Source: a virus
IMG/VR virus record: IMGVR_UViG_3300046167_000884
Span: 32,001-96,000 of that record
Strand: one strand, 5' to 3'
DNA length: 64,000 bases
The notes beneath the pieces were generated by a model. The model was not told the DNA's origin. It made no database searches and saw nothing but the letters and a program-made list of their open reading frames with translations. Positions 9,345 to 62,126 of this stretch are shown here, piece after piece (within the stretch, counting starts at the first letter, position 1; each line of letters opens with the position of its first letter). A program made the translations under genes and the position numbers.

Positions 9345-10003
9345 AGAAAAAAAAACTTTATTTCTTCTTCCATCAAAAACAGGTTCTACTTCTTTAGTTA
9401 GGATGTTTAAGGACTATGATATTCCTTTTATTTTAACCCCAATTAAAAAACACCCCTTACTTTCGGAATTATTAGAACTTAATAATATCCAAGATTTCTA
9501 TAATTATAAGATTTATCAAATTTGTAGAAATCCTATAGATAGAATGGTTTCATCTTATTATTTTCAACGTCAAATTATAAAAGATAAAGATAAATATAAA
9601 AAGTTTTTTAATTTAGATTTTAATCAGTTTATCGAATTGATAACAGACAATCAACATTATTTACCTAACCATATAAATAGATTTTGTATGAATGTTTTTT
9701 AATGATGTAAATTTTAGCAAAAATAAAGCTCCAACAGCTTATGGAGTAAGATTTTATCTTCCTCAAACAAAATGGAATGATATAGGAGCAAAAGTTAATT
9801 ATTTAAAATTAGAAGATTTAATTAAAGATAGTTCTATAATATCAAAAATTTTAAATGTTAATACTAATTTTATTTTCCCTCATAAAAATAAAACAAAAAA
9901 CAAACCAACTACTTCTTCAATAGATTTATATAATACTAAAAGTTTAAAATTATTAAAAAAAGCTTATCAAGAAGACTTTAAACAACTGCAATATGATATC
10001 TAA
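9334..10003 (+). CDS. Sulfotransferase (Sulfotransfer_2-like), split by a frameshift near 9695
   Basis: PSKTGSTS 5'-PSB-like loop and RNPIDRMVSSY 3'-PB motif; C-terminal half (HKNKT..Y..DF) in ORF 9692-10003; break at a T run. Confidence 0.75.
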
Positions 10004-10607: not shown

Positions 10608-10916
10608 ATGAATCATACTTGGAAAATTTACGATCTAAAAAGAACTATTGCTGATGGCGTAGTAACTAAAGTAACCTATGCTTGTGAATCCGAGCTATCT
10701 GGATCAAGCACAAGAAAAATTGGAGAACTTACAGTTGAAGGTTCTGTAGATGATGCAGATTTTATTGCATATGAAGATCTTACTCAAGCTGATGTTTTGG
10801 GATGGGTTGATGCTAATGTAGATAAATCTTCAACTGAAACCCAAAATTCAGCCTCTATTGCTGCTGCTATTACAGCTAGAGCAGCTAGAACAGAATCAAA
10901 CGGTACTCCTTGGTAA
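10608..10916 (+). CDS. Small fibre-associated protein
   Basis: 102 aa with a late-type motif upstream; WKIYDLKR..DGVVTKV.Y pattern resembles small proteins found beside phage fibre genes. Confidence 0.5.
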   Translation: MNHTWKIYDLKRTIADGVVTKVTYACESELSGSSTRKIGELTVEGSVDDADFIAYEDLTQADVLGWVDANVDKSSTETQNSASIAAAITARAARTESNGTPW

Positions 10917-10957: not shown

Positions 10958-11833
10958 ATGAATATAATCTTTCAAATAGACGGAGGTCTAGGAAAATCTA
11001 TCATGGCAACGGCCATGACTAAAGTTTTAAGAAAACGCTATAAAAATGCTCATATTGTAGTTGTTACAGCTTATCCCGATGTATTTTTAAATAATCCCAA
11101 TATAAATGAATGTTTTAGAATTGAACAAATGGGGGGTGCCTATTTAAAATATGCTAAAGATCAAGATTGTAAACTTTTCTTATCTGACCCATATCACCAC
11201 AATTCCTTCCTTACAGAAAAAGAACATTTATTTAGAACATGGTGTAAAATTTATGGTTTAAACTATAATAATGAACAACCAGAACTCTATTTAACCCAAC
11301 CCGAAATAGAATATTTTAAACCCTTTTATCAAGTAGAAAAACCCATTATGGCAATTCAACCTAATGGAGGACCAATAGGTCAAGGTTTTCAATATTCATG
11401 GACACGAGACATACCAGAACCCACAGTTAACGAGATAATTCAACATTATAAGGAAGACTATACCATAGTCCATATTAAAAGAGAAGATCAATATAAATAC
11501 CCAGATACATTACATGCTTTAGATGGGTTTAGAAGTATAGCTATATTATTACAATTATCTTCTAAACGCCTATTAATCGATTCATTCAGCCAACATTTAG
11601 CCGCTGCTATGGGTAAAAAATCTACAGTTTGTTGGGTAACTACAAAACCAAAAATATTCGGTTATAAACTACATGATAATATTTTATCTAACCCATTTAC
11701 AAAAGAACCTCAACTCCAAAATTCTATTTATCAACCTTTTAATTTAGCACAAGATGTTTCTTCTATTCCATATAATGATTTAAGAGAGGTATTTGATGTA
11801 AATAAAATTGTAGAGTCGATAAATAAACAGTAA
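10958..11833 (+). CDS. Glycosyltransferase, GT9/heptosyltransferase-like (GT-B)
   Basis: N-terminal IDGGLGKSIMAT..LRKRYKNAHIVV; C-terminal LIDSFSQHLAAAMGKKSTVCW. Confidence 0.7.
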   Translation: MNIIFQIDGGLGKSIMATAMTKVLRKRYKNAHIVVVTAYPDVFLNNPNINECFRIEQMGGAYLKYAKDQDCKLFLSDPYHHNSFLTEKEHLFRTWCKIYGLNYNNEQPELYLTQPEIEYFKPFYQVEKPIMAIQPNGGPIGQGFQYSWTRDIPEPTVNEIIQHYKEDYTIVHIKREDQYKYPDTLHALDGFRSIAILLQLSSKRLLIDSFSQHLAAAMGKKSTVCWVTTKPKIFGYKLHDNILSNPFTKEPQLQNSIYQPFNLAQDVSSIPYNDLREVFDVNKIVESINKQ

Positions 11834-12648
11834 TGGAAAAAATATTCTTTCAATCATCACTACCTAGAGCAGGTAGTACTTTGCTTCAAAACATATTAGG
11901 ACAAAATCCTGATTTTTATGTTACACCAACTTCTGGTGTGTTAGAACTACTATATTCAGCTCGTCAAAATTATACTTCTGATAATGCTTTTAAAGCACAG
12001 GATCCTGAATTAATGAAAAAAGGATGGCTTAATTTTTGTCGACAAGGTATAGAAGGATTCTTCAATGGTATTACAGACAAGAAATATGTAGTTGATAAAT
12101 CTAGAGGATGGGGTATACATTATAACTTTTTAAATTCATTCCACCCAGATCCAAAGATAGTTTGTATGGTTAGAGATTTAAGATCTATCTATGCTTCTAT
12201 GGAAAAAAACTTTAGAAAAAATCAAGATAAAGATAGTGGTGTAGTCAATTGGGCTGAAATGAAAGGTACTACAACTGCTAAAAGAGTAGACTTATGGGCA
12301 CAATCACCTCCAATAGGTATTGCAGTTGAAAGATTAAAACAAATGATAGATGAGGGTATAGATAAAAATATTTTATTCATCAGATTTGAAGATCTAACCT
12401 TTAATCCTCAAACAGAATTAGATAAAGTATATGATTTTTTTAGTGTAGACAGATACCAACACGATTTCCAAAATGTAGAACAAATAACACAAGAAGATGA
12501 TACAGTTCATGGTATTTTTGGAGACCATACAATACGTAAGGAGGTAAAACCTATACCTGAACAGTATAATGAGTACTTAGGTCAGGAACTATCACAAAAT
12601 ATAGTTAATACTTATCCTTGGTTTTACGAATATTTTCAATATTTATAA
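11833..12648 (+). CDS. Sulfotransferase (Sulfotransfer_3-like)
   Basis: SSLPRAGSTLLQNIL PAPS-binding loop, VDKSRGW, MVRDLRSIYAS, IRFEDL. Confidence 0.85.
   Translation: MEKIFFQSSLPRAGSTLLQNILGQNPDFYVTPTSGVLELLYSARQNYTSDNAFKAQDPELMKKGWLNFCRQGIEGFFNGITDKKYVVDKSRGWGIHYNFLNSFHPDPKIVCMVRDLRSIYASMEKNFRKNQDKDSGVVNWAEMKGTTTAKRVDLWAQSPPIGIAVERLKQMIDEGIDKNILFIRFEDLTFNPQTELDKVYDFFSVDRYQHDFQNVEQITQEDDTVHGIFGDHTIRKEVKPIPEQYNEYLGQELSQNIVNTYPWFYEYFQYL
12639..12648 (+). promoter_or_regulatory. Putative late promoter ATATTTATAA
   Basis: Recurrent motif, 19 nt before the nuclease start. Confidence 0.55.
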
Positions 12649-14952: not shown

Positions 14953-15303
14953 ATGTCAAGTATTAAAGAAATTATTGGAAAAGGAGATGTTAAATTTACT
15001 GTAAAAGGAATTACTGAGTACCGAAGAGGTGGTGATGATAATGAGTATGGTGATTTCCCAAAAATATTTAGAATTAATGAAGAGGGTGATGCTATTTTTG
15101 AAGATTCACGTTTATTTAGTAGAGGAATGAATGTTACCAAATTAGGCCCTACTTGTATTACATTGTATGATTACAATATGTTAGGTAAAAAAACAGTAGG
15201 TAAAATTAGTTATAAAGATATTACAATCTTGAACGAGGTTAAAGACATTCCAGGTTTCGAAGGAACATTAGAAGCATTAAACGAACTTACAATTTTAAAA
15301 TAA
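14953..15303 (+). CDS. Hypothetical protein
   Basis: 116 aa ORF downstream of a host-type promoter. Confidence 0.6.
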   Translation: MSSIKEIIGKGDVKFTVKGITEYRRGGDDNEYGDFPKIFRINEEGDAIFEDSRLFSRGMNVTKLGPTCITLYDYNMLGKKTVGKISYKDITILNEVKDIPGFEGTLEALNELTILK

Positions 15304-15308
15304 GAGTT

Positions 15309-15422
15309 ATGAGCAATTTAGAAAAATTATTATTATTACAAAAAAAGGTATGTGCAATAACAGAACCTGAATTAGCAGAGTATGTGAGTGTGTTAATCAA
15401 AACAGAATATGAATATCAATAA
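15309..15422 (+). CDS. Small hypothetical protein (37 aa)
   Basis: MSNLEKLLLLQKKVCAITEPELAEYVSVLIKTEYEYQ fills the gap between genes; below the ORF-track cutoff. Confidence 0.4.
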   Translation: MSNLEKLLLLQKKVCAITEPELAEYVSVLIKTEYEYQ

Positions 15423-15432
15423 AATAAAGGTT

Positions 15433-15888
15433 ATGAAAAAAATAGTATATTTACACGGCTTAGAAAGTGAAGCAGGAGGTCCAAAAGTATCTTTCCTTGC
15501 TGAAAAAGGTATGGTTTATGCTCCTGCTATGAATTATGAAAGCTTAAACTTACATGAATTTATCCTTACTTTAGGTATGCCCGATTTAATTATTGGATCT
15601 AGTATGGGTGGTTATGTTGCCGATGTTATAGGTTCAAGATTAGGAGTAGATGTTTTATTATTTAATCCTGCTTTACATAACAGATCAATCCCAGTAAATC
15701 ATGAATATTATGGTGAAACTTATAAACGTACAATTGTTTTAGGTACTGAAGATAATGTTATCAATCCTGAAATAACTAAAAATTTATGGTCTGTTCATGG
15801 TAATGTAGCAATACATGATGAGATAGAGGGTATGGGTCATAGAACGCCACTTGATGTTTTTATTAATATGTATAATAAACATGCTTAA
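15433..15888 (+). CDS. Alpha/beta hydrolase (YqiA/UPF0227-like esterase)
   Basis: YLHGLES, GSSMGG nucleophile elbow, LFNPAL, MGH; likely start MKKIVY at 15433. Confidence 0.85.
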   Translation: MKKIVYLHGLESEAGGPKVSFLAEKGMVYAPAMNYESLNLHEFILTLGMPDLIIGSSMGGYVADVIGSRLGVDVLLFNPALHNRSIPVNHEYYGETYKRTIVLGTEDNVINPEITKNLWSVHGNVAIHDEIEGMGHRTPLDVFINMYNKHA

Positions 15889-15890
15889 TT

Positions 15891-16436
15891 ATGATTAAAT
15901 TAATAGATCTATTAAATGAGATAGATATCCCTAAGAACAAATGGGTTACTATTCCTGCCTCAGAACTAAAAGACTATAGTGAAGAAATTTATAAGTTAAT
16001 TGATAATGCTTATGCACCAATTGGCGGTCATCCTAACTATAAATCCGCGGGTAATGTATCAGGTAGTGAATCTGATGCAGAATATGAAATAATTGATTTA
16101 GACGATGACCCTGAAATTGATGCAGTATCCGCTTCTAAACTTAAAGCCGCAGGTAAAAAATTTACAGCAACAGGACATGATGGGTCTAAACCAGCTAAAT
16201 CCAGTGTTGTAAATCATAAGGCAAATCAATTAAAATCTGGAGGATATTATGTTGAAGTATCAGGTGTAATAAAAGATATTTTTAAAGCTAAAGGTGTAGA
16301 AGCTATTAACGATGAAGAACTAGTACGTAAAGTACTTAAAGGAAAAGAAATTGAGTGGCTAGGTAATGGCGAATATAAAAGAACAATTGGTGGTAAATTA
16401 TTTACCAAAGCATTAATGGGAAAACCAACAGTATGA
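15891..16436 (+). CDS. Hypothetical, probable head-packaged protein
   Basis: N-terminus MIKLIDLLNE ends in an [IL]xE site. Confidence 0.55.
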   Translation: MIKLIDLLNEIDIPKNKWVTIPASELKDYSEEIYKLIDNAYAPIGGHPNYKSAGNVSGSESDAEYEIIDLDDDPEIDAVSASKLKAAGKKFTATGHDGSKPAKSSVVNHKANQLKSGGYYVEVSGVIKDIFKAKGVEAINDEELVRKVLKGKEIEWLGNGEYKRTIGGKLFTKALMGKPTV

Positions 16437-47004: not shown

Positions 47005-47144
47005 ATTTTTCATATGTATAATAAAATGCGTTATATCAAAACTATATTTATCTCATTATATAGCTATATTAAAATTCCCACGTATATTAACGTATTTACT
47101 CCGGTTTTATTCAATTTATGTATAATCCCTAATTTCAAGAATTT

Positions 47145-47882
47145 ATGGCAAGTAAACCCCATACGGATGATGTATATCGTCCTAAGAGAATTCCTAAAAA
47201 CCCAATTAAGTTCAAACTCCAACTTAATGAAGAACAAAAAGACGCTAAAAAACACATCCTGGAAAATACAATCACTCTCTTGGGAGGGGGTGCAGGTAGT
47301 GGAAAAACATTACTTGCATGTAATGTTGCCCTAGATGGTCTGTTACGAAGACAATATGATAAAATTATAATTACCCGGCCTACAGTATCAAAGGAAGAAA
47401 TAGGGTTTTTACCTGGTGATTTAAGAGAAAAGATGGATCCCTGGGTTCAACCTATTTATCAAAATTTCTTTGCATTATATGATAAATCTAAAATTGAAAA
47501 ATTAATTAGTGATGGTAAAATAGAAATTGTACCTGTGTCATTTATGAGAGGTAGAACATTTATGGATTCAATGATTATAGTTGATGAAGCTCAAAATGTC
47601 ACTCATGAACAAATGGAAATGATTACTTCACGTATAGGTTTAAGAAGTAAAATGATGATATGTGGTGATGCCCACCAAACAGATTTAAAAAAGAAATCAG
47701 ATTCTGGTTTTAAATTTTTATATACAGCGGCAAGAAAAATTAAAAATTTAGAAGCTATTACATTAATCACTAATCATAGAAATGAAATTGTTGAAGATTT
47801 ATTAAATTATTATAATGAAGCTGTTGATAAGGGAGCAAGTATTACTGTTTCTGGTTCATATATTTATAATAATAAAAGCTAA
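47145..47882 (+). CDS. phoH: PhoH family ATPase
   Basis: GGAGSGKT, ITRPTV, GFLPGDLREK, FMRGRTF, IVDEAQN, GDAHQTDL. Confidence 0.95.
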   Translation: MASKPHTDDVYRPKRIPKNPIKFKLQLNEEQKDAKKHILENTITLLGGGAGSGKTLLACNVALDGLLRRQYDKIIITRPTVSKEEIGFLPGDLREKMDPWVQPIYQNFFALYDKSKIEKLISDGKIEIVPVSFMRGRTFMDSMIIVDEAQNVTHEQMEMITSRIGLRSKMMICGDAHQTDLKKKSDSGFKFLYTAARKIKNLEAITLITNHRNEIVEDLLNYYNEAVDKGASITVSGSYIYNNKS

Positions 47883-49136: not shown

Positions 49137-50291
49137 ATGAATGTACCTATTTGGCCTGGTTCAAGTTCATTCGCACCCGGAGAAACACCTTTTGGCTTTT
49201 ATGATAACGATCCTGAATTTAGAAGGGACGCAGATAAAGTAGCTGTTTTTTGTGCTAATAGAATGGGTTACCCCTTAGTTGATATTGAATTACAATCTGG
49301 ATCTTTCTATACAGCATTTGAAGAAGCGGTAACTATTTATGGTAATGAAATTTGGGCATATATAGTTAGAGATAATTTCTTAGATTTAGAAGGAATTTCT
49401 ATATTTGATGAGTTAAATGAAACTATCATAACTCCTAGTATGAAAACCATAGTTAAATTAACCCAACAGTATGCAGATGAAGCAGGTGTAGGAGGTACAA
49501 TCCCATGGTATTCAGGTTCATTTGATCTTGTAGCAAACCAACAAAATTACAGCTTTGAAAATTTTATGACAGCTAGTGGATTTACCGGTTCTGCTTATTC
49601 AGAAGGTATTGAAGTAAAAAGAGTATTTTTTCAAGAACCTGTTCCTGCTTCCGCTCAATATTTAGATCCTTATACCGGATTTGGATTTGGTGGTTCTATT
49701 GCAGCTGGGTTAGTTGGTGTTGGAGGATTTGGTGGTGATATGGGTTATTTAATGATGCCTCTTAGCTATGATATGCAAGTAATTCAATCCATCGAAATGA
49801 ATGAAATGGTTAGATGGGCAGATTATAGTTTTGAAATTCATGCTAATGAACTTAAAGTATTCCCTAGACCTAAAAAAACAGAAGGCAAAATCTGGTTTCA
49901 GTATATTTTTGAAAAAGATAGAGGGGGAGTAAAATGTGCTGCTGATCAAGTTAATAATGTTGGTAATGCTAATTTTAAAAACCCTAATTATTCATTAATT
50001 AATTCAATTGGTAGACAATGGATATTTGAAATGACTTTAGCTATCGCTAAAGAAATGTTGGGGTATGTTAGAGGTAAATATTCAAGTATACCAATTCCAA
50101 ATGCTGAAGTTAATTTAAATCAACAAGATTTATTAGCAGCGGCAACAGCAGAAAAAACAGCATTAATAGAAAGATTAAGAGCTTATCTTGATGAAACTTC
50201 TAGAAAAGCCCTATTAGAAAGAAAAGCACAAGAAGCAGAATCTAAAATGGTAGAATTACAACAAGTCCCTTGGACAATTTTTATAGGATAA
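49137..50291 (+). CDS. Neck/head-tail adaptor protein (gp13-like)
   Basis: LGYPLVDIEL-like motif (MGYPLVDIEL), LAIAKEMLGYVRGKY..IPIP; position after the head genes. Confidence 0.7.
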   Translation: MNVPIWPGSSSFAPGETPFGFYDNDPEFRRDADKVAVFCANRMGYPLVDIELQSGSFYTAFEEAVTIYGNEIWAYIVRDNFLDLEGISIFDELNETIITPSMKTIVKLTQQYADEAGVGGTIPWYSGSFDLVANQQNYSFENFMTASGFTGSAYSEGIEVKRVFFQEPVPASAQYLDPYTGFGFGGSIAAGLVGVGGFGGDMGYLMMPLSYDMQVIQSIEMNEMVRWADYSFEIHANELKVFPRPKKTEGKIWFQYIFEKDRGGVKCAADQVNNVGNANFKNPNYSLINSIGRQWIFEMTLAIAKEMLGYVRGKYSSIPIPNAEVNLNQQDLLAAATAEKTALIERLRAYLDETSRKALLERKAQEAESKMVELQQVPWTIFIG

Positions 50292-50292
50292 T

Positions 50293-50808
50293 ATGGCAAT
50301 GTTTACAGGACAGAGAGATGTCTCTCTGGTAAGAAAATTAAATAGAGAATTGATGGGTAATATTATTACCCAACAATGTGCTTTATACCAATTTAAATTA
50401 GAAGAAACTAAAGTTAATATATATGGTGAAGCTGCTGGTGCTAAATTTTATAATGGTCCTTTCTTATTTAATGTATTAATAAATAGATCAAATGAGGTGT
50501 TTGGTGAAGACGAAGAAGGAATTCAGTTTAATCAACCAATTGATTTTTATTTCTTTAGAGACGATTTAGTAGATGCCGATGTGGTACCTGAAGTTGGTGA
50601 TATAATTTTATATCAAGAAGGATATTATGGAGTACAAAGTACAGTAGCAAACCAATATTTTGGAGGCAAAAACCCAGATTACCCAAATAATATAAATCCA
50701 TTAAATCCTGGGTTAGAATATTTTGGAAATAATTTATCAATATTAGTATCAACATATTATATACCAGCGGATAAAGTAGCAATTTCTCCATATCAAGAAA
50801 GAATGTAA
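50293..50808 (+). CDS. Head completion/neck protein (gp14-like)
   Basis: NIYGEA, VVPEVGDII; synteny. Confidence 0.55.
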   Translation: MAMFTGQRDVSLVRKLNRELMGNIITQQCALYQFKLEETKVNIYGEAAGAKFYNGPFLFNVLINRSNEVFGEDEEGIQFNQPIDFYFFRDDLVDADVVPEVGDIILYQEGYYGVQSTVANQYFGGKNPDYPNNINPLNPGLEYFGNNLSILVSTYYIPADKVAISPYQERM

Positions 50809-51732
50809 TGAGTAAAATTAGAAAACCAATTCCCAAAACCCAAAGACAATTAAGTGTTGAACAACAAAAGGCGTTTGATACTGAAAGAGGTAATCCTAAT
50901 GCTCGTATTAACCCTAATGAATCGGAAACCGGAATTGATTTTAATAGATCAACTAAATTAAGTTTTAAAGATGATAGCACTAAACCCTTTTCTATTGGTC
51001 TTCAAGATTTAGATGAGGCTGTATTTTATTATTTTAAAGAAGTTATTAAACCCTTTGTATATCAAAATGGGGGGAAGAAGAAATGTACCTATAATTTATG
51101 GGTCCCCTGAAAGATGGAAATCATTCCAAAGAGATGGCTATTACAGGGATAAAAAAGGTGCTATAATGTTACCCATTATAGTTGTAAAAAGGAACACAAT
51201 ATCAAAAGATAGATCTGTTTATAATAAATTAGATGCTAATGGAGTAAACTTATATAGCTCATTCCAGAAAAAATATAGCCCTAATAACTTTTATAATAAT
51301 TTTTCAGTTTTAAATAATAAAAAACCAGTAAAAGAACATTATGCTGTAGCTGTTCCTGATTTTGTTACCCTAGAATATAGTTGTATCATTCAAACATATT
51401 ACATGGAACAGTTAAATAAAATTATTGAAGCTTGTGAATATGCCTCTGATGCTTATTGGGGTAACCCTGAAAGATTTAAATTTAGGGCTTTCATAGATCA
51501 GTTTACAACAGCAACCGAATTAACATCTGGTAAAGATAGATTAGTAAAAGGTACCTTTAATATACAATTAAGAGGTTATATTATACCTGATACTATTCAG
51601 AAAGAAATGAATTCAATTAACAAATGGAATAGCAAATCTAAGGTTACAATTAATTTTGAAACCACTAGTAATGTTGATACATTTAAACCGGGAATTAAAA
51701 CTTTTCCTGGTGGGCAAACTAGAGAAGAATAG
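50808..51732 (+). CDS. Tail terminator/sheath stabiliser (gp15-like), frameshift at G6 near 51068
   Basis: DLDEAVFYYF..VPIIYGSPERW, AVPDFVTLEY, YWGNPERFKF; two ORFs join at a homopolymer. Confidence 0.6.
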
Positions 51733-51764
51733 TTTGGATTAGTTAAATTGGTTACATACATTAT
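51733..51764 (+). promoter_or_regulatory. Bacteroidota-type promoter for the cysC/glycosylation operon
   Basis: TTTG-N20-TACATT. Confidence 0.6.
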
Positions 51765-51784
51765 GGTTACAAAAATAACGTTAT

Positions 51785-52244
51785 ATGATATATTGGTTTA
51801 CAGGTCAGCCTTGCTCTGGGAAGACTGTTTTAGCAAACATGCTTAAAGAAAAGTATCTCCCTCATGCGTATCGCATTGATGGAGATGAAATGAGAGAATT
51901 ATTTACAAATAAAGATTATTCTATAAAAGGTAGAATAACTAATGTAGATGCTGCTCAAAAAATTGCCCATTATTTACACAATCAAGGTAAAGATGTAATT
52001 GTATCTTTAGTATCTCCTTATTTAGACCAAAGAGAAGAATTTAAGGATATAATGGAGTGGCAATTACATGAAATCTTTGTACATTATGACCTAGATAAAG
52101 GACTTAGGGGTAGAGAAAATTACCATGTTGCACAATTCCAAAAACCAGATTTAGATTACAGTTGATATAGATACAACAACACATACCCCAGAAGAATCTC
52201 TAGAAATAATAGCTAAACAAATAGGTTTACATGCAAAAATTTAA
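51785..52244 (+). CDS. cysC: Adenylyl-sulfate (APS) kinase, frameshift near 52160
   Basis: YWFTGQPCSGKT, IDGD..RE.F, DYS..GR, IVSLVSPY..QRE; continues DIDTT.HTPEES in another frame. Confidence 0.85.
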
Positions 52245-52569
52245 TACATACTTTTGTGATATAGATGGAACTATTTTAAAATATCGCAAATTTGAAACAT
52301 ACGAATCTTCTAAAGCTGAGGGGATAAAATCCACTATAGAATATCTAGACAAAGCTTCAGTTGAGGGACATATGATAGTTTTAACTACAGCACGTCCTGA
52401 GTACCTTAGGATGCATACTGAAATAGAATTATATGAAAATGAAGTACCATATCACAGATTAATTATGGGTATCGAAAGAGGACCTCGTTATTTAATCAAT
52501 GATATGGATCCAAATAAACCTGGAGAACGGGCTATTGCAATAAATTTAGAAAGAGATAAAGGTATATGA
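52231..52569 (+). CDS. HAD-like phosphatase
   Basis: FCDIDGTI, LTTARP, RYLIND. Confidence 0.75.
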   Translation: MQKFNTYFCDIDGTILKYRKFETYESSKAEGIKSTIEYLDKASVEGHMIVLTTARPEYLRMHTEIELYENEVPYHRLIMGIERGPRYLINDMDPNKPGERAIAINLERDKGI

Positions 52570-52965
52570 AAAAGTATTTAGCACAAGCAGCATTTCAGTC
52601 ATCATTTAATAAGAATAAGTACTCAATGTATATTGGTAGATGGCAACCATGGCACGCAGGACATCGATGGTTAATAGACCAGCGCTTAAATGAAGGTAAA
52701 AACGTATGGATAGCAATTAGAGATATCCCACCAGATGAAAAAAACCCCTGGACAGGCCCAAGAGGTATTAGTTAACTTGGGGCATGAATTAAAAGATCTT
52801 CTTAATGAAGGTAGAGTAAAAATTACAATAGTACCAGATATTGAATCAATTAATATAGGTAGAGGGGTAGGATATGATGTTATAGAACACTGCCCACCTG
52901 AGGAAGTAAAAAATATCTCTGCTACTAAAATTAGAGAACAAATGAAAAAAGATGGTAAGTTATAA
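52566..52965 (+). CDS. Cytidylyltransferase-like (HIGH) protein, frameshift near 52755
   Basis: IGRWQPWHAGH; VPDIESINIGRGVGY; ISATKIR. Confidence 0.8.
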
Positions 52966-53176
52966 AAGACACATTGCTAAAACAATTTCCTGGAGGATTA
53001 TAGGTACTCTAGACACCATAATCCTTTCAGGTGTTAATAACAGGTTCAGTGGGAAATCGGGGACTAGCCATTGGAGGAATCGAAGTTATTACAAAAATGG
53101 TCATTATATTTCGTTACATGAAAGAGCTTGGTATAAATTAAGTAAATTTGGGGTAAATGGAAAATCAAAAACCTAA
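52952..53176 (+). CDS. DUF2061-like small membrane protein (indel-damaged)
   Basis: RHIAKTISWRIIGTLDT and LHERAW motifs. Confidence 0.75.
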   Translation: MVSYKRHIAKTISWRIIGTLDTIILSGVNNRFSGKSGTSHWRNRSYYKNGHYISLHERAWYKLSKFGVNGKSKT

Positions 53177-56100
53177 AATTTTTGCACATGGTAGTTATAT
53201 AGGAACAACAGGATATAATAACCATACAAGAGCAATTTACAGGGAACTTTCTAATCTTTATGATTTAAAGGTTAGGAATTATACTGTAGGTAAATCATGG
53301 GAAGGACATAATGAAGAACCCCATAATGGAGAAGATTATATTGATGGTTTAGATAAAAAATTATTAGTTGAACAATCCCTTTGGGAAGAAGATAAATTAA
53401 TTCATAAATCTTTTTATAATAATTACCCTAATAGTTTTGATCATAATGTAAATATAGTTTTAAATGAAACAAATCATCATTTCTTTTATCAAAATTACGA
53501 TGGTCCTAAGATAGCATATAATGTTTGGGAGTCTACAAGACAACCAGAAGAGTTTTTTAACCAATTAAAAACATTTGATCAGGTTTGGGTTGCCTCAAAA
53601 TGGCAAAGGGATTGCACAATTGAGCAAGGTATTGACCCTACTAAGGTAAAAGTAGTACCCGAAGCTGTAGATGGACTTACATTTAGACCAAATTCACAAG
53701 TTACTTTACCTGAATATAGTGATAAAAGATTTAAATTTGTTTTATTTGGTAGATGGGACTATAGAAAGGCAACAAAAGAAGTAATAGAATCTTTCCTACA
53801 GGAGTTTAATGAAGATGAACCCATTGATTTAATAGTATCAATTGATAACCCATATGCTAAAGATAAATTTAAATCAACCGAAGATAGATTAAAACATTAC
53901 AAATTAAATGACCCCAGGGTCAAAATAAAACATTTTCCTACCAGAGAAGAATATATAAATTATTTACAAAAAGGTCATGTATTTTTATCTTGTGCTAGGG
54001 CTGAAGGGATGGAATTTACCCTTAATTGAAGCTATGGCATGTGGTACCCCATCAATATATTCTAACTGTAGCGCCCAATTAGAATTTGCAGAGGGACTAG
54101 GGTTACCTGTAAATATAAAATCTACATCAGAAGCAAAACTAGGGGAATATAGTAGTTTCTCTCAATCTTTATTAGCAGGGGAATTTTATGAACCTGATTT
54201 TGACCATTTAAAAAAGGTAATGAGAGATGCTTATGAAAATTATAAACACCATAAACAAAAAGCATTAGAAGAATCTAAAATAATTAGAGAAAAGTTTACT
54301 TGGGAAAATGCTGCTAAAATAGCAGGCAAAGAAATAGAAAATTTATTAGATAATTTACCTAAAAATAAGGTAGAAGTAAGTTTTGATTTAGGACCTAAAG
54401 TAGAAGTATTAGGACACCATAAGAATAAATATTTTGTTGAGTTTATAGATGGTAATACTAATGAAGTTATACATAGTGATACCATAAGTAATAATATGTG
54501 GACTAAATGTAGTAAAAGTTATCACATTCCTTGGGTTATAAAAGTAAACGGAAAAATAATTCATGTTTTTTCCCTTAAAGATAAAACTGTTAAAATATCT
54601 TTAGAGTCAAGGTCTATAGGAGATACTTTAGCATGGTCTCCCCAAGTAATAGAATTTGCAAAACACTATAAATGTAAAGTTATACTTAGTACTTTCCATA
54701 ATGATTGGTTTGAATCTCTAGAAGAATACAAGGATATTACTTTTATAAAACCAGGAGAAGACTGTTCATATTATGCTAGTTTTCAAATAGGATGGTTTAG
54801 AGATGAAAATAATGGGTGGAAAAATTTTAATGACCACCCAACTCAAGTAAATACAATTCCCCTTATTCAAGCGGCTACTGATATTTTAAGAATACCCTAT
54901 AAAGAATTACATTATGGTATTAATTTTACACCGAAAAAAAGACCTATAAAAGGTAAATATATTTGTATAGGGCCTAGATCAACCTCTGGGTTAAAAGAAT
55001 GGCCTTATGAACATTGGAAAAATTTAGCAAAAAAACTCCATAGTAAAGGGTATAAAATAGTTAATTTATCTAGAGAAGGATTTAAAGGAGTAAATATAAT
55101 AGATAAAAAGAATTTAAAATGGGAAGATACATTAAATCATCTTTACCATGCAGATTTATTTATTGGTCTAGGGTCAGGTCTATCTTGGTTGAATTGGGTT
55201 TTAGATAAACATACTGTAATGATAAATAATTTTATCCCTTATGGTTATGAATTTACTAATCATTTAACTAAAATTGAAAATAATTCTGTTTGTAATAATT
55301 GCTGGGTAAGTAAAACCCACATATTTGATAGTGGAGATTGGGATTGGTGTCCAGAACATCAAAATACTAAACTACAACATATTTGCCAAAAATCAATATC
55401 AACGGAGCAAGTATATAATAAAGTTTTAAACCTTCTAGAACCAAAAAAAAAAGATAATTTTATATGGATAACAGGAGGTGATGAATCTTATCTTCCTATG
55501 ATAGAGGTATTAGCTAAAAGTTTATTAAAATATTCTAAATATAAGTTAATTGTATATGGGTTCAATTGTGATTCAAATATAGAATTACCTAATGTAATTA
55601 ATAAAAGGATAGATTACAGACCAAAACCTCCAACTTCTAGTAAGTATGAGTCTGATCTATTTAATAAAGATTACTCTATTTATTTTGCTAAATATTTAGC
55701 TAGTTTAGATTCATTAAATGAAAACTATGATAATTTTGCTTGGATTGATGGTGATGCTTTTGCAACTGAAAACATTGATACTTCATTACACCATTTAAAT
55801 AATTTAGAAGATTATCCTTTATTTATGAGATACTTCCATGAAGATATTAACCAATGGAGGTATCATAATAATATAAAATTAGAAGGAAACTATGGGGGTG
55901 AATTAGCTTTTATTAAAAATTTAACTAGAAACCCTAATCAAAGAATTATAGCTACTGGTTTTTACTTTTATAATAAAAATAGTAAAATATTTTTTGAAAA
56001 ATGTTTAAAATGGAACCGGGAATTAAATAATTATAGTGTAAAAGTATATGCTGATGATAATGCCTTTTCTGAAGAAAGAGTAGCAAATAATGTTTTATGG

Positions 56101-56880
56101 GAAGAAAATAAACAGAATTATCTCCCAGTTACTTGGAATAACTATTATAGTAGTATTGAAGAAAGAAAGACAAATAATTATTTTTTAAACCAAGGATTTG
56201 ATGTTATGTATGATGAATATACTTTAAAACCTTATTTTATTCATGGACCCGATCCTTCTGTTAAAAGTAAAGATGCTAATACCTTATTAAAAGCATTTAA
56301 AGACTACCAAATAAACAAATTAATGATAGTAGCACATCCTGATGATGAATTAATATTTGGGGGAGCAGAATTAATACAACATGGTCCAGAATACAAAGTA
56401 ATTTGTCTTACCAATAAATCTAATAAAACACGAAGTAAAGAATTTGAACAAGTAATGGGAAAATTAAATGTTGGTTCTTGGGAAATGTTAGATTATGAAG
56501 ATAAGTTAGATTCTACTGAAGAATTTAATTTAAATGATATTTTAAGTTATAAAAATTGGAAAAAAATTGTTACCCATAACCCAATAGGAGAATATGGTCA
56601 CCCACAACATAAATTAATTTTTGAATCTGTAAAGAGATTTACTACTAATTTTTATGTTTTTGGGAAATCCAATGTAAAATTATCTCAAGATATTTTAAAT
56701 AATAAATTAGAAACCCTAAAATTATATAAATCAGAACAATCTATTATAAACCAAATTCAAACTAAAAAGGGTGATTGGTTTAAAAGTAATTCTGATACAA
56801 ATTATATAGAATATGAGTCTATTACTAAGTATAATAAAAATAAAGATATAACCCCTTATATAGCATGTTATGACAAATAA
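53157..56880 (+). CDS. Giant glycosylation fusion: GT4 + TibC/AAH-type heptosyltransferase-like + GT-A-like + PIG-L deacetylase; frameshift near 54005
   Basis: RAEG-WNLPLIEAMACG (GT4); SIGDTLAW.P..F..HYKC.V..ST..GLGSGLSW; WIDGD; AHPDDE..HNPIGEYGHPQH. Confidence 0.75.
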
Positions 56881-57802
56881 AAACCTAGTAATTATCTTAA
56901 GTCATTGTGATACTGAAGAAAAGTTAAAAGTATTAGAGAACAATATTCAACAATTAAAAACTAATAATTTTGATATATTACTTACATCACACATCCCATT
57001 ACCTGGAAACATTCAATCTCAAGTAGAATATTTTATATATGACAAAAGTAACCCTATTTTACATTGGCCTAAAAGAGGTATGACCTACTGGAAAATCCTC
57101 CCAACCGATACCGAAAATTTAAAACTAGTAAATATTCTCTCAGATTATGGGTGGACAGCTTTTAATCAACTTTTAACTTCAAGTCATTTAGGGTTATCTT
57201 TAGAATATGATCATTATAGTTTTATTAATTATGATATAATATTTACCCCACAAATAATTGAAACAATGAAATTACCCCATAATTTCCTTTGTAGTAAAGT
57301 TTATGAAAGTAAAAATCAAGAAGGGTTTAGGTTTCCTAGTTTCATGTTTAGTATAATAAATAAAGATAATTTAAAAAAGTTACTTCCCTTAATTTCCAAA
57401 CAACAATACATACGTGGTGATTTTAAGGATGCTGAAAATTATTTAGGTTATTTACTTTCTGTGTTTGATTATGAAATCCATCCTGAAATTATTAAGGATC
57501 AAATTGAATATGGAGATAAAGATCCTTTTAATTATAACAAAGATAATGATTTATTTAAGATTTTTTACCAAAGTGTGGTAGACCCTAAAATTTACGAAAC
57601 ACCTCCTTCTATTTTATTTTATGATATTCAAGAAGAATTTGAATTAAATATAAACGAAGAAAAAATTATAATCCACCCTACATCTCATAGAATAGAATAC
57701 TCAGATATAAAAAAACTTGGATATTATTTAAAGGATTCATATATTGATCTAATGTACATTTTTCAAGAAAACCACCAAACATCTATAGATATCAATGATT
57801 AA
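56870..57802 (+). CDS. Hypothetical, possible glycosyltransferase
   Basis: VIILSHC..; FINYDII (DxD-like); operon context. Confidence 0.5.
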   Translation: MTNKNLVIILSHCDTEEKLKVLENNIQQLKTNNFDILLTSHIPLPGNIQSQVEYFIYDKSNPILHWPKRGMTYWKILPTDTENLKLVNILSDYGWTAFNQLLTSSHLGLSLEYDHYSFINYDIIFTPQIIETMKLPHNFLCSKVYESKNQEGFRFPSFMFSIINKDNLKKLLPLISKQQYIRGDFKDAENYLGYLLSVFDYEIHPEIIKDQIEYGDKDPFNYNKDNDLFKIFYQSVVDPKIYETPPSILFYDIQEEFELNINEEKIIIHPTSHRIEYSDIKKLGYYLKDSYIDLMYIFQENHQTSIDIND

Positions 57803-58736
57803 AAATAAAAAAATATTCATAACTGGGGGAGCAGGATTTTTAGGTAAAAATTTAGTTAGACGTTATTACAATGATAATGAAATTACAGTTTATAGTAGAG
57901 ATGAAGCCAAACATTACTATTTAAAAAAAGAATTTCCTAATATAAATTGTATTATTGGGGATGTACGTAATTTTGATTTATTAAAAAGAGCATCCGTAGG
58001 GCACAATATCGGTATATTTGCTGCTTCATTAAAGCAAATAGGAGCAGTAGATCAAAATGTAGAAGAAAGTGTTAAAGTATTAGTAGATGGAGCTCTTAAT
58101 TCAAGAAGAGTAGCTGAAGAAAACAATTTTGAAGCAGCATGTTTTATATCCTCAGATAAATCCAGAGCAGCTACTACATTATATGGTGCAATGAAATTTG
58201 TAGCAGGAGAATCATTTATAGTAAATGCTGAAAAATCAAATGTTAAATTATCCACAGCAGTATACGGAAATGTATTAAATTCAACTGGTAGTATAATTCC
58301 ACTAATATGGGATTCCATTAATAAAAACTACCCACTTACTTTATACTCAGAAGAAATGACTCGTTTTATGATTGATATAGAGGAAGCAATGGACTTGATT
58401 GAATTAGGACTCCAAACTAGTGGATATAATATTATTCCTAATTTAAGATCATTTAGAGTAAAAGATTTATTTAAAATATATCAAGAGAAATTTAATCTTA
58501 AATACACAATTGGTAAACCTAGAATTTCAGAAAAACTTCATGAAATGATGATTTCAAAAGAAGAAACCCCTAGAACTCATTATGAATTTGATGAAAATAC
58601 ATTTTATATGCATTACAAAGATACTGTATCTATAGCTGATCGTTGTATGGATGAAGAATTTACAAGTGATAAAGTATGTGTATCTAAAGAAGAATTAGTT
58701 AAAATTTTAAATCATTATAATTTTTTTAAACCATGA
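57795..58736 (+). CDS. UDP-sugar 4,6-dehydratase (CapD/PseB, Polysacc_synt_2 family)
   Basis: ITGGAGFLG, SRDEAKH, IGDVR, SSDK, YGAMK, YGNVLNSTGSIIP, MTRF, EKLHE. Confidence 0.85.
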   Translation: MIKNKKIFITGGAGFLGKNLVRRYYNDNEITVYSRDEAKHYYLKKEFPNINCIIGDVRNFDLLKRASVGHNIGIFAASLKQIGAVDQNVEESVKVLVDGALNSRRVAEENNFEAACFISSDKSRAATTLYGAMKFVAGESFIVNAEKSNVKLSTAVYGNVLNSTGSIIPLIWDSINKNYPLTLYSEEMTRFMIDIEEAMDLIELGLQTSGYNIIPNLRSFRVKDLFKIYQEKFNLKYTIGKPRISEKLHEMMISKEETPRTHYEFDENTFYMHYKDTVSIADRCMDEEFTSDKVCVSKEELVKILNHYNFFKP

Positions 58737-59444
58737 AAGTATTAATATTAGGACATAAAGGAATGTTAGGACATATGGTCCATAAATTTTTTGAAAGTAA
58801 AGGAATTGAATGTGTTACCACAAGTTGTAGATGGCCTTCATCTTGTTTTAAAAATTTTGTACAAAAATTTGAAGGTGATTTTATTATAAATTGTATAGGG
58901 GCTATTCACCAACGAACAGATCAGTTTAATATTAATTGGGAATTACCGCAATGGTTAGATGAAAACCTTTCTACTAAAATAATCCACCCAGGTACTGACT
59001 GTGAAATGGATGATGATGATTATGGTAACTCTAAAAGAATAGCAGCAGAATGGATTAAAGAAAAAGCTAAAAACACAAAAATTATTAAAACATCAATATT
59101 TGGTCCTGAATTAAATACTAAAGCTAGTTTAATGGAGTGGTTTTTATCACAAGAAGGTGAAATAAATGGGTATTCTGAATATTATTGGAATGGTAATTCT
59201 ACTTTAACTTGGGCTCAATACTGCTTATATTTAATATTCCATTGGGATGAACTACCCACAGAAAATATATTAGAAGGAGAATGTATATCTAAATACAATT
59301 TACTTTTACTATTAAAAGAAGTATATAGTAAAAATATTACTGTTAATCCTGTTGATACTCCCCATATTTAATAAATGTTTAGTAGGAACAGTAAAAACTT
59401 TACCATTAAAAGAACAAATAATTGCATTAAAAGAATTTTATTAA
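58733..59444 (+). CDS. RmlD-like NDP-4-keto sugar reductase, frameshift near 59365
   Basis: VLILGHKGMLG, IINCIG, STDC-like GTDC, YGNSK, WNG.STL. Confidence 0.8.
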
Positions 59445-59453
59445 TATTTATAA
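59444..59453 (+). promoter_or_regulatory. Putative late promoter ATATTTATAA
   Basis: Recurrent motif. Confidence 0.65.
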
Positions 59454-59465
59454 ACAAAATAAAAA

Positions 59466-59718
59466 ATGAGTACAACAAAGTTATCACAAGAAGAGTTACA
59501 ACAATTAAGAAATTTTCAAAGATCAGAAAATGAAATTACTTTTTCCTTAGGTCAAATTGAATTAAGAAAAGTATTTTTAGAAAAAGGATAAACAAAACCT
59601 CCAAAACCAATACCAATCACTCCTCCAGGACCAAGAAAAAGCAGGTAAAGAATTACAAGAAAAATATGGAGAAGGTAATATTGATTTAGAAAAAGGAGAA
59701 TTCATTAAATCAGAATAG
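59466..59718 (+). CDS. Small coiled-coil phage protein, frameshift at A run near 59585
   Basis: MSTTKLSQEELQQL..LGQIEL joins EKDKQ..EKYGEGNIDLEKGEF. Confidence 0.6.
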
Positions 59719-59737
59719 TTCTTTGAGAAAATCTTTA

Positions 59738-59747
59738 ATATGTATAA
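59738..59747 (+). promoter_or_regulatory. Putative late promoter ATATGTATAA (sheath)
   Basis: One-base variant of the recurrent motif. Confidence 0.6.
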
Positions 59748-59776
59748 TAAAACAATATTAAAAATAACATATAAAG

Positions 59777-62126
59777 ATGGCAGAAACATTATTATCTCCA
59801 GGTGTATTAGCTAGAGAAAACGACCAATCATTTATTACTCAACAACCCTGCAGAAATTGGTGCTGCTATTATAGGACCAGCTGCTTTAGGACCTGTTGAA
59901 GTACCTACATTGGTTACTTCTTTTAGTGAATATACAGCAATTTTTGGTACTACCGTACAAAGTGCATCAATTGCTTATTCGTATTTGACTTCATTAGCAG
60001 CAAATAATTATTTCCAAAGTGGTGGAACAAGCTTATTAGTTACTAGAGTAACTCCAGAAACCTTTACTTCTGCTACAAGCTCATTTATTAGTACAGTTGA
60101 TGGTTCGGAATTAAAAACGGGTGATACTAATGCCGCAGCCTTATTTGCTGAGGGCGTTGATGCTGGTTCAGATTTTACAGGTTCGGGTACAGTAACTTAT
60201 ACCGGAGCTACATTTACAACAAATGGTAGTGGAACAGGAGCAACATTTAATTTAGTTACAACTGCTGGAGCTCCAGTAGCAGTAACAGCTTCAGTCGCGG
60301 GTACAGGATACGATCTAGGAGATACACTAACATTTTCTACAAATGATAATGGTGGTTCTCCTTTAGTAACAACTGAACTATCCGGATCAACTTCATTTGC
60401 AGCCGACGATGATTATGATGCAGGTACAATTACTATTGCTCCCTCAACAACTACTTCAACAGATGTAACAGGTCAAACTTGGTCTTTAACTTTTGCTGGA
60501 GATACAGGAACTACTGATGCCCATTTAACAACAATTACCGCTACTACTGCTGGAGAAGGAGTTAAAGCTGGAGATATATTTAGTTGGACAGCAGCAGATA
60601 TTAATACTGAATTAGGTGGTACCTCAGCTGGGGTAACTAATATAGTACTTACAGTACAAGAAGCTGATTTAGTAGCTGGAACATTTACAGTAACTTTAGC
60701 TGCCGGAAATTTAACAGATGATGTTACACCTTTTGAATTAGAAACAATCTCAGAAGGGGCAATAATGAATACAGGAACAACTGAACTATCAGGAGGTGCC
60801 TTAGAAACAGGATCAGCAGAAAATGTTCGTTGGTCAATCCCTTCAGTAAACACAGCCTCAGGAACTTTTAGTTTACTTATTCGTAGAGGTAACGATAATA
60901 CAAACCAACAAGTAGTATTAGAACAATACAATAATTTATCATTAGACCCATATCAACCAAATTATATATCAGCACAAATTGGTGATATTAATAGAAATTT
61001 AGTTAATGAGGGATCAGATTACTTTATCCAAGAATCAGGATCTTATGCTAATTTATCAAGATATGTAAGAGTAAAATCAGTAAATTTAAAAACACCAAAT
61101 TATTTCGATAATAATGGTCAAGCAAAATCTCAATTTACAGGTTCTTTACCAGCAGTATCTTCTGGTTCATTTAATGGAGCTAGTGGGGAAAATATAACAA
61201 CTGCTACTTCAGGACGTGTTGCTAACTTTTATGGAAACATAGGAGATGGTGCTGCATTTGATACACAAGGATTAACTGGTAGTAATTATGATAACGCAAT
61301 TGCTTTACTAGGAAATGTAGATGAATACAAGTATAATGTTATTAGTGCTCCTGGGTTACTTAACGCAACTCACGCAACTCAAACAACAAATTTGCTATCA
61401 AACACAATCCAAAGAGGAGATGCAATCGCAGTACTAGATTTAGTAAAATATGGTAGTTCAATAGCATCAGTTTCACAAGCTGCTGCTGCGTTTGATAATA
61501 GTTATGCTGCAACTTATTGGCCATGGGTTCAAATGATTGACCCACAAACAGGCGAATTAGTTTACTCCCCAGCCTCAACTGTAATCCCTGGAGTGTATGT
61601 ATTTACAGATGCTTCAAGCGAACCATGGTTTGCACCTGCTGGATTAACTAGAGGAGCTTTGGGTCAAGTAGTTAGAGCTGAAAGAAAATTATCTGCAACA
61701 AATAGAGATACTTTATATGAAGCAAATGTTAACCCACTTGCAACATTCCCACAATCAGGAGTAGTTGTATTTGGTCAGAAAACATTACAAAAACGTGCTA
61801 GTGCTTTAGATAGAGTAAATGTACGTAGATTGTTAATATCTCTTAAAGGATTTATTTCTGGGGTAGCTGATAATTTAGTATTTGAACAAAATACTATTGC
61901 TACAAGAAACAATTTCTTAAGTGTAGTTAATCCTTATTTAGAAGGAGTACAACAAAGACAAGGATTGTATGCTTTTAAAGTAGTAATGGATGATACAAAT
62001 AATACAGCATCAACTATAGATAGGAATGAGTTAGTAGGACAAATATTTTTACAACCAACTAAAACAGCTGAATTTGTAATATTAGATTTCAATGTATTAC
62101 CAACTGGAGCAACATTCCCAGCATAA
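59777..62126 (+). CDS. gp18: Tail sheath protein (T4 gp18-like), frameshift near 59848
   Basis: MAETLLSPGVLAREND start; YAATYWPWV, PWFAPAGLTRG, VFGQKTLQ, DRVNVRRLL, FEQN, FLQPTKTAEF. Confidence 0.95.

Follow-up and report, generated by a model that had tools for sequence, protein, structure and literature searches.

Why would a phage keep genes that resemble those of sulfate activation and sugar-nucleotide synthesis among the structural genes of its virion? The question is raised by an island at 51785-59444 of a 64,000-nucleotide stretch of the IMG/VR virus record IMGVR_UViG_3300046167_000884. This stretch, which we call the window, comprises bases 32001-96000 of a 120-kb contig for which CheckV gives a completeness of 74%. 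A preliminary description of the window had read the island as one operon that forms, together with distant sulfotransferases, a single sulfated-glycan pathway. Our analyses point to two modules. We estimate with a probability of roughly 0.6 that the first would activate sulfate to 3′-phosphoadenosine 5′-phosphosulfate (PAPS) for use by sulfotransferases, and that the second is a swappable protein-glycosylation cassette.

Kinase and nucleotidyltransferase of the core

The first module, hereafter the core, combines an adenosine 5′-phosphosulfate (APS) kinase-like gene, an optional HAD phosphatase, a small HxGH nucleotidyltransferase and usually a DUF2061 gene, and was found in about 370 viral contigs. 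In the window it reads:

51785..52249, + strand, APS-kinase-like P-loop kinase (142-175 aa in relatives; here 126 aa plus a tail in the +1 frame)
52231..52569, + strand, minimal capless HAD phosphatase, optional core member (112 aa; motifs DIDGT, TTAR and INDMD)
52566..52965, + strand, small HxGH nucleotidyltransferase (117-133 aa in relatives; CTP_transf_like)
52952..53176, + strand, DUF2061 small membrane protein (72 aa; middle scrambled by about five one-base insertions)

Several of these frames are broken in the record, as discussed below, and functional analysis used the intact gene versions of a relative's locus, L009. Judged by sequence, the phage kinase is a trimmed, divergent member of the APS-kinase family. 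In Pfam, APS_kinase (PF01583) scored highest with 62-64 bits against a cut-off of 21.1 (64 bits for the window match at 51785-52165), and apart from a marginal Zeta_toxin match it was the sole family above its curated cut-off. A PDB search matched nothing but APS kinases (E about 1e-8), and in NCBIfam they ranked first, with TIGR00455 at 59.6 bits vs a cut-off of 138.7. In an alignment, the P-loop and the DGDxxR, (F/Y)S, R, N and SPY motifs were invariant across phage and canonical kinases. The lid, KGLYKKAR.GEI..FTG, is about 20 residues shorter in the phage kinases, TNVDA replaces ENIRR, and the N-terminal extension is missing. It is the loss of lid, IRR arginines and extension that makes us speak of a trimmed and divergent member. 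A tblastn search against cultured phages returned distant kinase matches only, at 26-29% identity.

The nucleotidyltransferase carries the motif series GRWQPWHxGH ... RD..PDEKNP ... IPDIES.N.GRGVGY ... ISATxIR. The first and the last of these are invariant in the family and match the motifs GRFQPxHxGH and ISxTxIR of nicotinamide mononucleotide adenylyltransferases (NMNATs). Its predicted fold is a minimal Rossmann-like HxGH domain (pLDDT 85.7), of which the N-terminal half alone resembles NMNAT and phosphopantetheine adenylyltransferase (PPAT) structures (2QJO, 1F9A, 1M8J; TM about 0.5 over about 80 residues). Scores against the NMNAT families TIGR01527 and NF002243 are low, 37-56 bits vs cut-offs of 127-181, and the phage protein with its 117-133 aa is shorter than these families with 167-181. 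Pfam, NCBIfam and PDB matches included neither Sat (PF01747) nor CysD (TIGR02039), and no ATP sulfurylase was among the fold matches.

The nucleotidyltransferase follows the kinase in all collected viral loci with enough flank, and its frame is intact in 78 of them. In Casjensviridae phages both are fused (phrog_10255), and in environmental and bacterial proteins fusions occur in both orders, with kinase halves that score 184-264 bits against the CysC equivalog-domain cut-off of 138.7. As adjacent genes, the pair is found in metagenome-assembled genomes (MAGs) of Flavobacteriales, where the kinase reaches 285 bits. The nucleotidyltransferase family comprises about 1,015 clusters at E <= 1e-10 (50% identity clustering), and about 36 of its top 150 representatives have an N-terminal extension of kinase size. 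Other fusion partners are a DHHA1 domain, a HAD, a class I methyltransferase, FeS_assembly_P and a cupin of the mannose-6-phosphate-isomerase type (P0257, P0015, P0229, P0013, P0021); the DHHA1 fusion is a further tie to sulfur, since the DHH/DHHA1 family includes NrnA-type pAp phosphatases. A fusion to CysC lies between two sulfatases in a Planctomycetota MAG (L085 7938-12388) and adjoins a Sulfotransfer_3 gene in a Pyrinomonadaceae MAG (L084 6351-8844). Twelve genomes with such a fusion or pair contained Sat (PF01747) in no case and a CysD-like gene in two, counts that are supportive only, as these genomes are incomplete MAGs or a single-cell assembly.

In the Casjensviridae phages, which infect Xylella, Xanthomonas and Stenotrophomonas, the kinase-nucleotidyltransferase fusion is a single 248-aa protein annotated 'kinase' or 'adenylylsulfate kinase'. 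Xylella phage Salvo (L082, NC_042345) encodes it at 15167-15913 and has a gene annotated 'cysteine dioxygenase' 3.5 kb upstream.

The small membrane protein adds a link to host sulfur metabolism. The intact DUF2061 copy of L009 scores 80.4 bits against PF09834 (cut-off 23.1), and the window copy, owing to its indels, 24 bits over 19 residues. Phage DUF2061 proteins are 60-82% identical to those of Flavobacteriaceae, and in at least 6 of 12 Flavobacteriales loci, viewed with 1.5 kb of flank, the chromosomal neighbours of DUF2061 include cysC, cysD, cysN or cysH. The phage core looks like a host cys operon in which CysDN was swapped for the small nucleotidyltransferase. Phage and host operons (DUF2061-cysC-cysD-cysN or DUF2061-cysH-cysD) have the neighbours cysC and DUF2061 in common; in contrast to the host, the phage has the nucleotidyltransferase in place of CysDN, no CysH, and a linkage to sulfotransferases.

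The nucleotidyltransferase thus probably is a minimal ATP sulfurylase of an undescribed type, since it is fused to CysC, Sat and CysD are scarce beside it, DUF2061 belongs to cys operons, and the core is linked to sulfotransferases. The preliminary description had guessed that the protein with the HIGH motif either supplies APS or activates a sugar; the fusions in two orders, the Sat/CysD scarcity and the DUF2061-cys link favour the first guess.

The HAD phosphatase is an optional member and occurs in 40 of the 80 core loci that we collected via the kinase for comparing modules. It matches Hydrolase_3 with 22-23 bits (cut-off 20.9), HAD_PNKP and Acid_phosphat_B weakly, and PHROG families of the polynucleotide kinase (PNK) phosphatase type and of GmhB-like type; a PDB search gave a non-significant Pnkp1 match only. 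We tried it as a marker to tell sulfate activation from nucleotide-sugar supply and dropped it, as it was enriched neither with sulfotransferases nor with the TibC-type glycosyltransferase domain described below.

Sulfotransferase linkage and a probable glycosylation cassette

Two sulfotransferase-family reading frames lie in the left part of the window:

11833..12648, + strand, sulfotransferase, likely consumer of the core product (271 aa; Sulfotransfer_3 65 bits, Sulfotransfer_1 43 bits)
9334-9702, first sulfotransferase-family open reading frame (ORF) (122 aa; the match is confined to the central part of the family model)

The 271-aa protein shows faint similarity to NoeE, and a search against PDB sequences found nothing. 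In the window it lies 39 kb from the core, whereas in many relatives the sulfotransferase is directly upstream. We examined 69 loci of its viral relatives (58-91% identity) with at least 3 kb of downstream flank, and the core was within the flanks of 34. It usually starts 5-30 nt past the sulfotransferase stop codon, in some lineages 2-3 kb upstream, and three arrangements exist in all. Conversely, in 15 of 50 contigs with the core, a Sulfotransfer_1 gene lies on the same strand within 4.2 kb, in six of them less than 165 nt upstream. The linkage has outlasted rearrangement, with the 39-kb gap of the window as one more variant. Hence, that the cysC operon serves the sulfotransferases is a part of the preliminary description that passed this linkage test; its extension to a single sulfated-glycan pathway is not supported, as the cassette described next is variable.

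The first sulfotransferase-like ORF is overlapped downstream by a 103-aa ORF (9334-10003), and this region probably is another gene split by an insertion. Next to the sulfotransferase region lies a gene for DUF7936 (10608-10916), which in genome G007 (93% complete) directly follows the core (L062 1467-1859).

Between core and sheath gene, the island continues with the second module:

53157..56880, + strand, giant four-domain enzyme with GT4 glycosyltransferase, TibC/Aah-type, unassigned and PIG-L domains (1,244 aa in L009)
56870..57802, + strand, 310-aa protein of a phage-only family
57795..58736, + strand, PseB/FnlA/CapE-type UDP-N-acetylhexosamine 4,6-dehydratase of the short-chain dehydrogenase/reductase (SDR) type (Polysacc_synt_2, PF02719, 143 bits vs 20.2)
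58733..59444, + strand, short SDR-like protein, weakly RmlD-type (243 aa in L009; RmlD_sub_bind, PF04321, 20.5-22.5 bits vs 27)

In the giant protein of L009, Glycos_transf_1 (PF00534; GT4, GT-B) scores 41.8 bits vs 26.4 and GT9 29 bits, and the PIG-L de-N-acetylase (PF02585) scores 40-43 bits vs 28.2. The family model of TibC and Aah, TIGR04414, gives 202.5-205 bits for L009 at a cut-off of 200, and 191.4 bits for the window copy. The alignment to TibC (4RAP; E = 3.8e-33) spans residues 38-386, that is nearly the whole length, and the four-Cys iron-finger region (C..C...C...C) is conserved. For the third domain (about 55444-56316), PDB and PHROG searches gave no match. TibC and Aah are protein O-glycosyltransferases. 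By analogy, the acceptor here would more likely be a protein than polysaccharide or DNA. The preliminary description had rightly listed a giant glycosyltransferase fusion and missed its TibC/Aah-type domain, the very part that points to a protein acceptor. The phage domain resembles the bacterial autotransporter heptosyltransferases TibC and Aah (TIGR04414; 4RAP/4RB4) over the full length and in the four-Cys region. It differs from them in being built into a 1,244-aa protein together with three further domains, and no substrate of the autotransporter kind is encoded nearby.

Of the remaining cassette products, the 310-aa protein had no match in Pfam, NCBIfam or PHROG, and its earlier 'GT-like' label is unconfirmed; in the Atlas it falls into phage-only clusters, and the nearest named protein, WavE at 0.91, is a lead only. 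The dehydratase matches structures of its class (4TQG 1e-40, 2GN4 2e-32, 4J2O and CapE), and scores in NCBIfam 161 bits vs 408 for PseB (TIGR03589) and 113 bits vs 730 for FnlA. With PseB/FlaA1, FnlA, CapE and 4TQG it has the Polysacc_synt_2 fold in common (1e-40 to 1e-25), and as in FnlA/FnlB-type systems a reductase-like gene comes next. Unlike these, it stays below all equivalog cut-offs, and its partner is short (243 aa) and weakly RmlD-like. The partner resembles the RmlD family below the family's cut-off (PDB 1VL0, E = 9e-4) and probably is the 4-reductase of the pair. In analogy to established PseB/FnlA pathways, the joint product might be a UDP-2-acetamido-2,6-dideoxyhexose.

In the 80 loci, the space between core and sheath holds the full cassette (L002, L004, L009, L067), the cassette minus the dehydratase, the GT4 and TibC-like part alone, the TibC-like domain alone, or nothing. 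A TibC-type domain is present in 2 of 16 large core-bearing contigs and in 14 loci overall. Since the cassette varies and is absent from most core-bearing relatives, core and cassette are separable modules. This speaks against a single pathway running through all island genes.

TibC-like domains were found in just four phage records, among them Microcystis phage Mel-JY01. There, a 1,226-aa protein annotated 'methyltransferase FkbM' (L254, PP395634, 4750-8430) ends in a TibC-like domain that is 41% identical to that of the window; the gene adjoins a structural gene, and a 640-aa 'cytidylyltransferase like protein' is encoded 3 kb downstream. At the left end of our window, two ORFs of high GC content (47%; 2-2908 and 3139-4653, of which the latter matches Pfam Collagen) code for collagen-like (Gly-Thr-Ser / Gly-Ser-Ser)n repeats, in which Ser and Thr number in the hundreds; insertion errors like those of the island have probably disrupted these frames here and there. 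This Ser/Thr-rich, collagen-like fibre (2-4653) is a possible acceptor for O-glycosylation or sulfation.

Borders, integrity and spread of the island

The island genes form one tightly packed unit on the + strand, bordered by two structural genes:

50808..51732, + strand, neck-region structural gene, left border (313 aa in relatives; here 100-aa and 239-aa ORFs)
59910..62126, + strand, tail sheath gene, right border (phrog_23, E = 1.4e-54)

Upstream lie head, neck-type and adaptor genes, including a match to a head-tail adaptor at 49137-50291, and downstream sheath, tube and baseplate-hub genes. These structural matches on either side bear out the earlier claim of an insertion between neck and sheath genes. 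Likewise, profile searches recovered all gene families named in the preliminary description, in the order given there and on the + strand. For the left-border gene 50808..51732 itself, Pfam and PHROG gave no family. As listed, the sheath ORF begins at TTG 59910; its true start probably is the ATG at 59778, with a frame-broken N-terminus. From cysC to the RmlD-like gene, stops and starts overlap or abut, which fits one transcription unit. Apart from one weak 5-bp stem, no terminator-like site was found on the + strand inside the island. The single host-type promoter proposed earlier is, however, not distinguishable from background: sigma-70-like matches in 51500-60000 numbered 54 where 56.6 are expected by chance, and the consensus is not that of Bacteroidota.

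Neither does the record carry intact genes, as had been assumed. At least 10 frame breaks occur within 8.6 kb and hit the neck gene, cysC, the nucleotidyltransferase, DUF2061 (about five times), the glycosyltransferase fusion and the RmlD-like gene, apparently also a small gene at 59467-59718 and the N-terminal part of the sheath. Where DNA could be aligned to the closest relatives, each break proved to be a single inserted base, in many cases within a short run that it extends. In the neck gene this is an extra G in a G-run near 51069. The cysC frame stops at 52165, and its conserved C-terminus continues in the +1 frame after an insertion near 52159-52161; the nucleotidyltransferase is split into 69 + 76 aa near 52754. 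An extra base near 54006 divides the glycosyltransferase fusion into 290 + 967 aa, and the GT4 motif '...AEG / WNLPLIEAMACGTP' spans this junction. In the RmlD-like gene, one surplus C in a C-run brings the stop 24 codons forward to 59371, the true end being 59444; this insertion was defined against L067, where the flanks are 100% identical.

We conclude that these breaks belong to this record and that the natural population carries intact genes, because four independent, otherwise identical seawater assemblies lack the bases in question. These contigs, which come from four other studies and otherwise agree with the record in every letter aligned, have one base fewer at 51069, 52159/52161, 52754 and 54006. 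At 51069 the base is absent in three of four independent runs, and one low-depth contig of run X4 retains it; the extra bases at 53033, 53049 and 53058 are absent from the one run covering that stretch. Relatives have single open frames for the neck gene (17/17), the nucleotidyltransferase (78/78), cysC (13/15) and the glycosyltransferase (10/11). Programmed frameshifting as cause of the split genes was rejected, as identical independent assemblies do not have the insertions. One might still take the breaks as real and the operon as a decaying, here non-functional pseudogene cluster, given their density and the extra G in run X4. This is hardly credible. The aligned breaks are all one-base insertions, and they strike an essential gene of the neck as well, apparently also that of the sheath. 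At no position covered do the otherwise identical contigs of three or four independent studies show the inserted base; relatives have intact frames, and identity to L067 around the RmlD-like break is complete.

Two further places in the record read similarly. The small gene at 59467-59718 is coiled-coil-like (83 aa in L009) and appears frame-broken here. A PhoH-like gene at 47014-47882 has an overlapping 106-aa ORF ahead in another frame, and 66 is the first profile position in its PHROG match; the frame may be broken here as well.

In its major capsid protein the phage shares 56% identity with the Flavobacterium myophages vB_FspM_immuto and 49% with Mel-JY01, and the G+C content of the window is about 30%. 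Together with the 60-82% identity of DUF2061 to marine Flavobacteriaceae proteins, this makes marine Flavobacteria the likely host. The phage lineage is widespread. The region 50800-54100 was near-identical (more than half of sampled words) in 13 public seawater, marine or viral metagenome runs, and runs with at least part of it came from 17 studies from 2015-2025. Against cultured phages, a DNA search with the whole island gave one short match, to Mel-JY01, and no cultured phage with the island. A tRNA scan found none.

A working model and its competitors

We propose joint late transcription of the two modules and the structural genes. Module 1 (51785-53176) would be a self-contained sulfate-activation cassette, in which the nucleotidyltransferase converts ATP and sulfate to APS and pyrophosphate, and the trimmed APS kinase converts APS and ATP to PAPS. 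PAPS would then feed the phage sulfotransferase(s), whose gene is the first of the same operon in many relatives. The optional HAD might pull the pathway, either by stripping the 3′-phosphate from 3′-phosphoadenosine 5′-phosphate or by hydrolysing pyrophosphate, and DUF2061, presumably taken from a host cysDNCH operon, might keep its host accessory role at the membrane. In module 2 (53157-59444), dehydratase and RmlD-like reductase would make the UDP-2-acetamido-2,6-dideoxyhexose, and the giant fusion would assemble and trim a glycan on the Ser/Thr residues of what is probably a virion protein. Sequence and genome comparisons establish the families, the order of the genes, the linkage counts, the fusions and the intact state of the genes in natural populations. 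The sulfurylase activity, the HAD and DUF2061 roles, the identity of the sugar, the acceptor and the sulfation of the glycan are steps that we infer.

Several observations do not sit well with this model. The nucleotidyltransferase has no detectable similarity to Sat or CysD, and with NMNAT and PPAT as its nearest relatives in sequence and fold it could possibly adenylylate a different product. One of the 12 genomes with a fusion has a CysD-like gene right beside it, so the nucleotidyltransferase is not always the sole candidate sulfurylase, and that these genomes are MAGs or a single-cell assembly weakens the argument from scarcity. In the phage kinase, the lid and IRR arginines of APS kinases are missing, and its score stays far under the CysC equivalog cut-off (59.6 vs 138.7). 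The HAD is associated neither with sulfotransferases nor with the TibC-type domain (7 of 14 TibC-type loci vs 40 of 80). Finally, the near-complete, core-bearing genomes G007 and G008 have no recognisable sulfotransferase in searches with four families, no TibC-type domain and no PAPS reductase. In G008 (100% complete; L065 6834-13501), the core lies among an HtrL_YibB-family gene, QueC and a carbamoyltransferase, and a 2OG-Fe(II) oxygenase is inserted between nucleotidyltransferase and DUF2061.

That G007 and G008 carry the core without a sulfotransferase fits an assimilatory role as auxiliary metabolic genes (AMGs): the core would raise the host's sulfate-to-PAPS flux, and host CysH/CysIJ would make sulfide and cysteine for phage protein. 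The company of DUF2061 and cysC with cysH, cysD and cysN in host operons agrees with this. We consider it unlikely as the general explanation, since none of the 16 large core-bearing contigs encodes a PAPS reductase, and since the core directly adjoins about half of the sulfotransferase relatives, an association specific to sulfotransfer and not to reduction. Both readings share their enzymology and differ in the consumer of PAPS, and they may hold in different phages. A nucleotide-sugar pathway would need other chemistry. Here, the kinase would act on a sugar phosphate, the HAD like GmhB and the nucleotidyltransferase like HldC or RfaE domain II, yielding an ADP- or CDP-sugar such as a heptose donor for the TibC/GT9-type domain, and the sulfotransferases would be unrelated. 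In the window, kinase, HAD, HxGH nucleotidyltransferase and TibC-type domain indeed stand in one unit, and the HAD matches a PHROG annotated as heptose-pathway enzyme. There is also an experimental precedent: in phage contig 53, a HAD/APH-kinase fusion, a cytidylyltransferase and a GT-B enzyme are all needed to place heptose on 5-hydroxymethylcytosine (5hmC) DNA (bioRxiv 10.1101/2023.12.21.572611). That cluster has the same combination of kinase, HAD, HxGH-type nucleotidyltransferase and GT-B as the window; its kinase, however, is APH-like and fused to the HAD, its glycosyltransferase resembles the T4 beta-glucosyltransferase and its target is DNA, whereas our kinase is APS-kinase-like, not of the ribokinase or APH sugar-kinase type, and most cores go without a heptosyltransferase. 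With the TibC-type domain in so few core contigs, a HAD that is not enriched beside it, and a nucleotidyltransferase without any match to RfaE domain II that is fused to equivalog-grade CysC, we think a heptose-type pathway quite unlikely; it also leaves the DUF2061-cys operon link and the sulfotransferase adjacency unexplained.

The NMNAT resemblance might alternatively place the core in NAD or nucleic-acid metabolism, with an NMNAT beside a nucleoside or nucleotide kinase and a nucleotidase for NAD salvage or counter-defence, or with kinase and HAD as a split polynucleotide kinase-phosphatase for RNA or DNA end repair. NMNATs are the best sequence and fold matches of the nucleotidyltransferase, and some cultured-phage homologues are annotated as such; kinase and HAD match the kinase and phosphatase halves, respectively, of the PNK-type phrog_505, and HAD_PNKP is a weak Pfam match. 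But the similarity to NMNAT is limited to the ATP-binding half, far below the lowest cut-off of 127 bits, in a protein 40-50 residues shorter, and the PNK-type match of the kinase is much weaker than its APS-kinase match (Pfam 1.5e-3 vs 6e-17). Neither version explains the canonical CysC fusion, the DUF2061-cys link or the sulfotransferase adjacency, and we regard both as very unlikely.

The sulfate-activation model has a close parallel in the bifunctional PAPS synthases (Aquifex aeolicus SAT/APS kinase 2GKS, human PAPSS1/2). In these, too, an adenylyltransferase acts ahead of an APS kinase, the two being neighbours or fused in either order, and the phage kinase matches their kinase domains. 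The phage system differs in that its adenylyltransferase would be a 117-133-aa NMNAT/PPAT-like HxGH protein without a Sat (PF01747) or CysD match, and in that the kinase has neither lid nor N-terminal extension. Viral cysC has been described as an AMG on aquatic viral contigs (Kieft et al., via PMC12713726). Virome surveys usually take cysC singly, as a gene of assimilatory sulfate reduction, whereas here it belongs to a kinase-nucleotidyltransferase-DUF2061 unit, often with a sulfotransferase. In the open-access literature we found neither this nucleotidyltransferase nor a part of DUF2061 in sulfate activation described, nor a phage operon that joins sulfotransferase and PAPS genes. Viral cysC is known from surveys; the kinase-nucleotidyltransferase-DUF2061 unit, the sulfotransferase operon and the candidate sulfurylase family are apparently new in the open literature.

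We may speculate further, at somewhat less than even odds, that the nucleotidyltransferase represents a third type of ATP sulfurylase without sequence relationship to Sat and CysDN, making minimal PAPS synthases with APS kinase in marine phages and several bacterial phyla. Sulfotransferase, kinase, nucleotidyltransferase and DUF2061 would then constitute a host-independent sulfation system, which might sulfate a phage-built O-glycan on a virion protein, e.g., the collagen-like fibre. Should the nucleotidyltransferase prove to be an ATP sulfurylase, a very compact enzyme family would have gone unrecognised at a central step of sulfur metabolism; its members are now labelled 'cytidylyltransferase-like' or NMNAT, and genomes scored as lacking sulfate activation may possess it. 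A compact two-protein PAPS generator could moreover serve in vitro enzymatic sulfation. For phage biology, the TibC-type domain in a structural operon makes O-glycosylation of virion proteins testable in abundant phages of marine Flavobacteria. Viral cysC, in turn, would have to be re-read from an AMG of nutrient assimilation to a supplier of donor for phage-directed sulfation, a modification hardly explored in phages.

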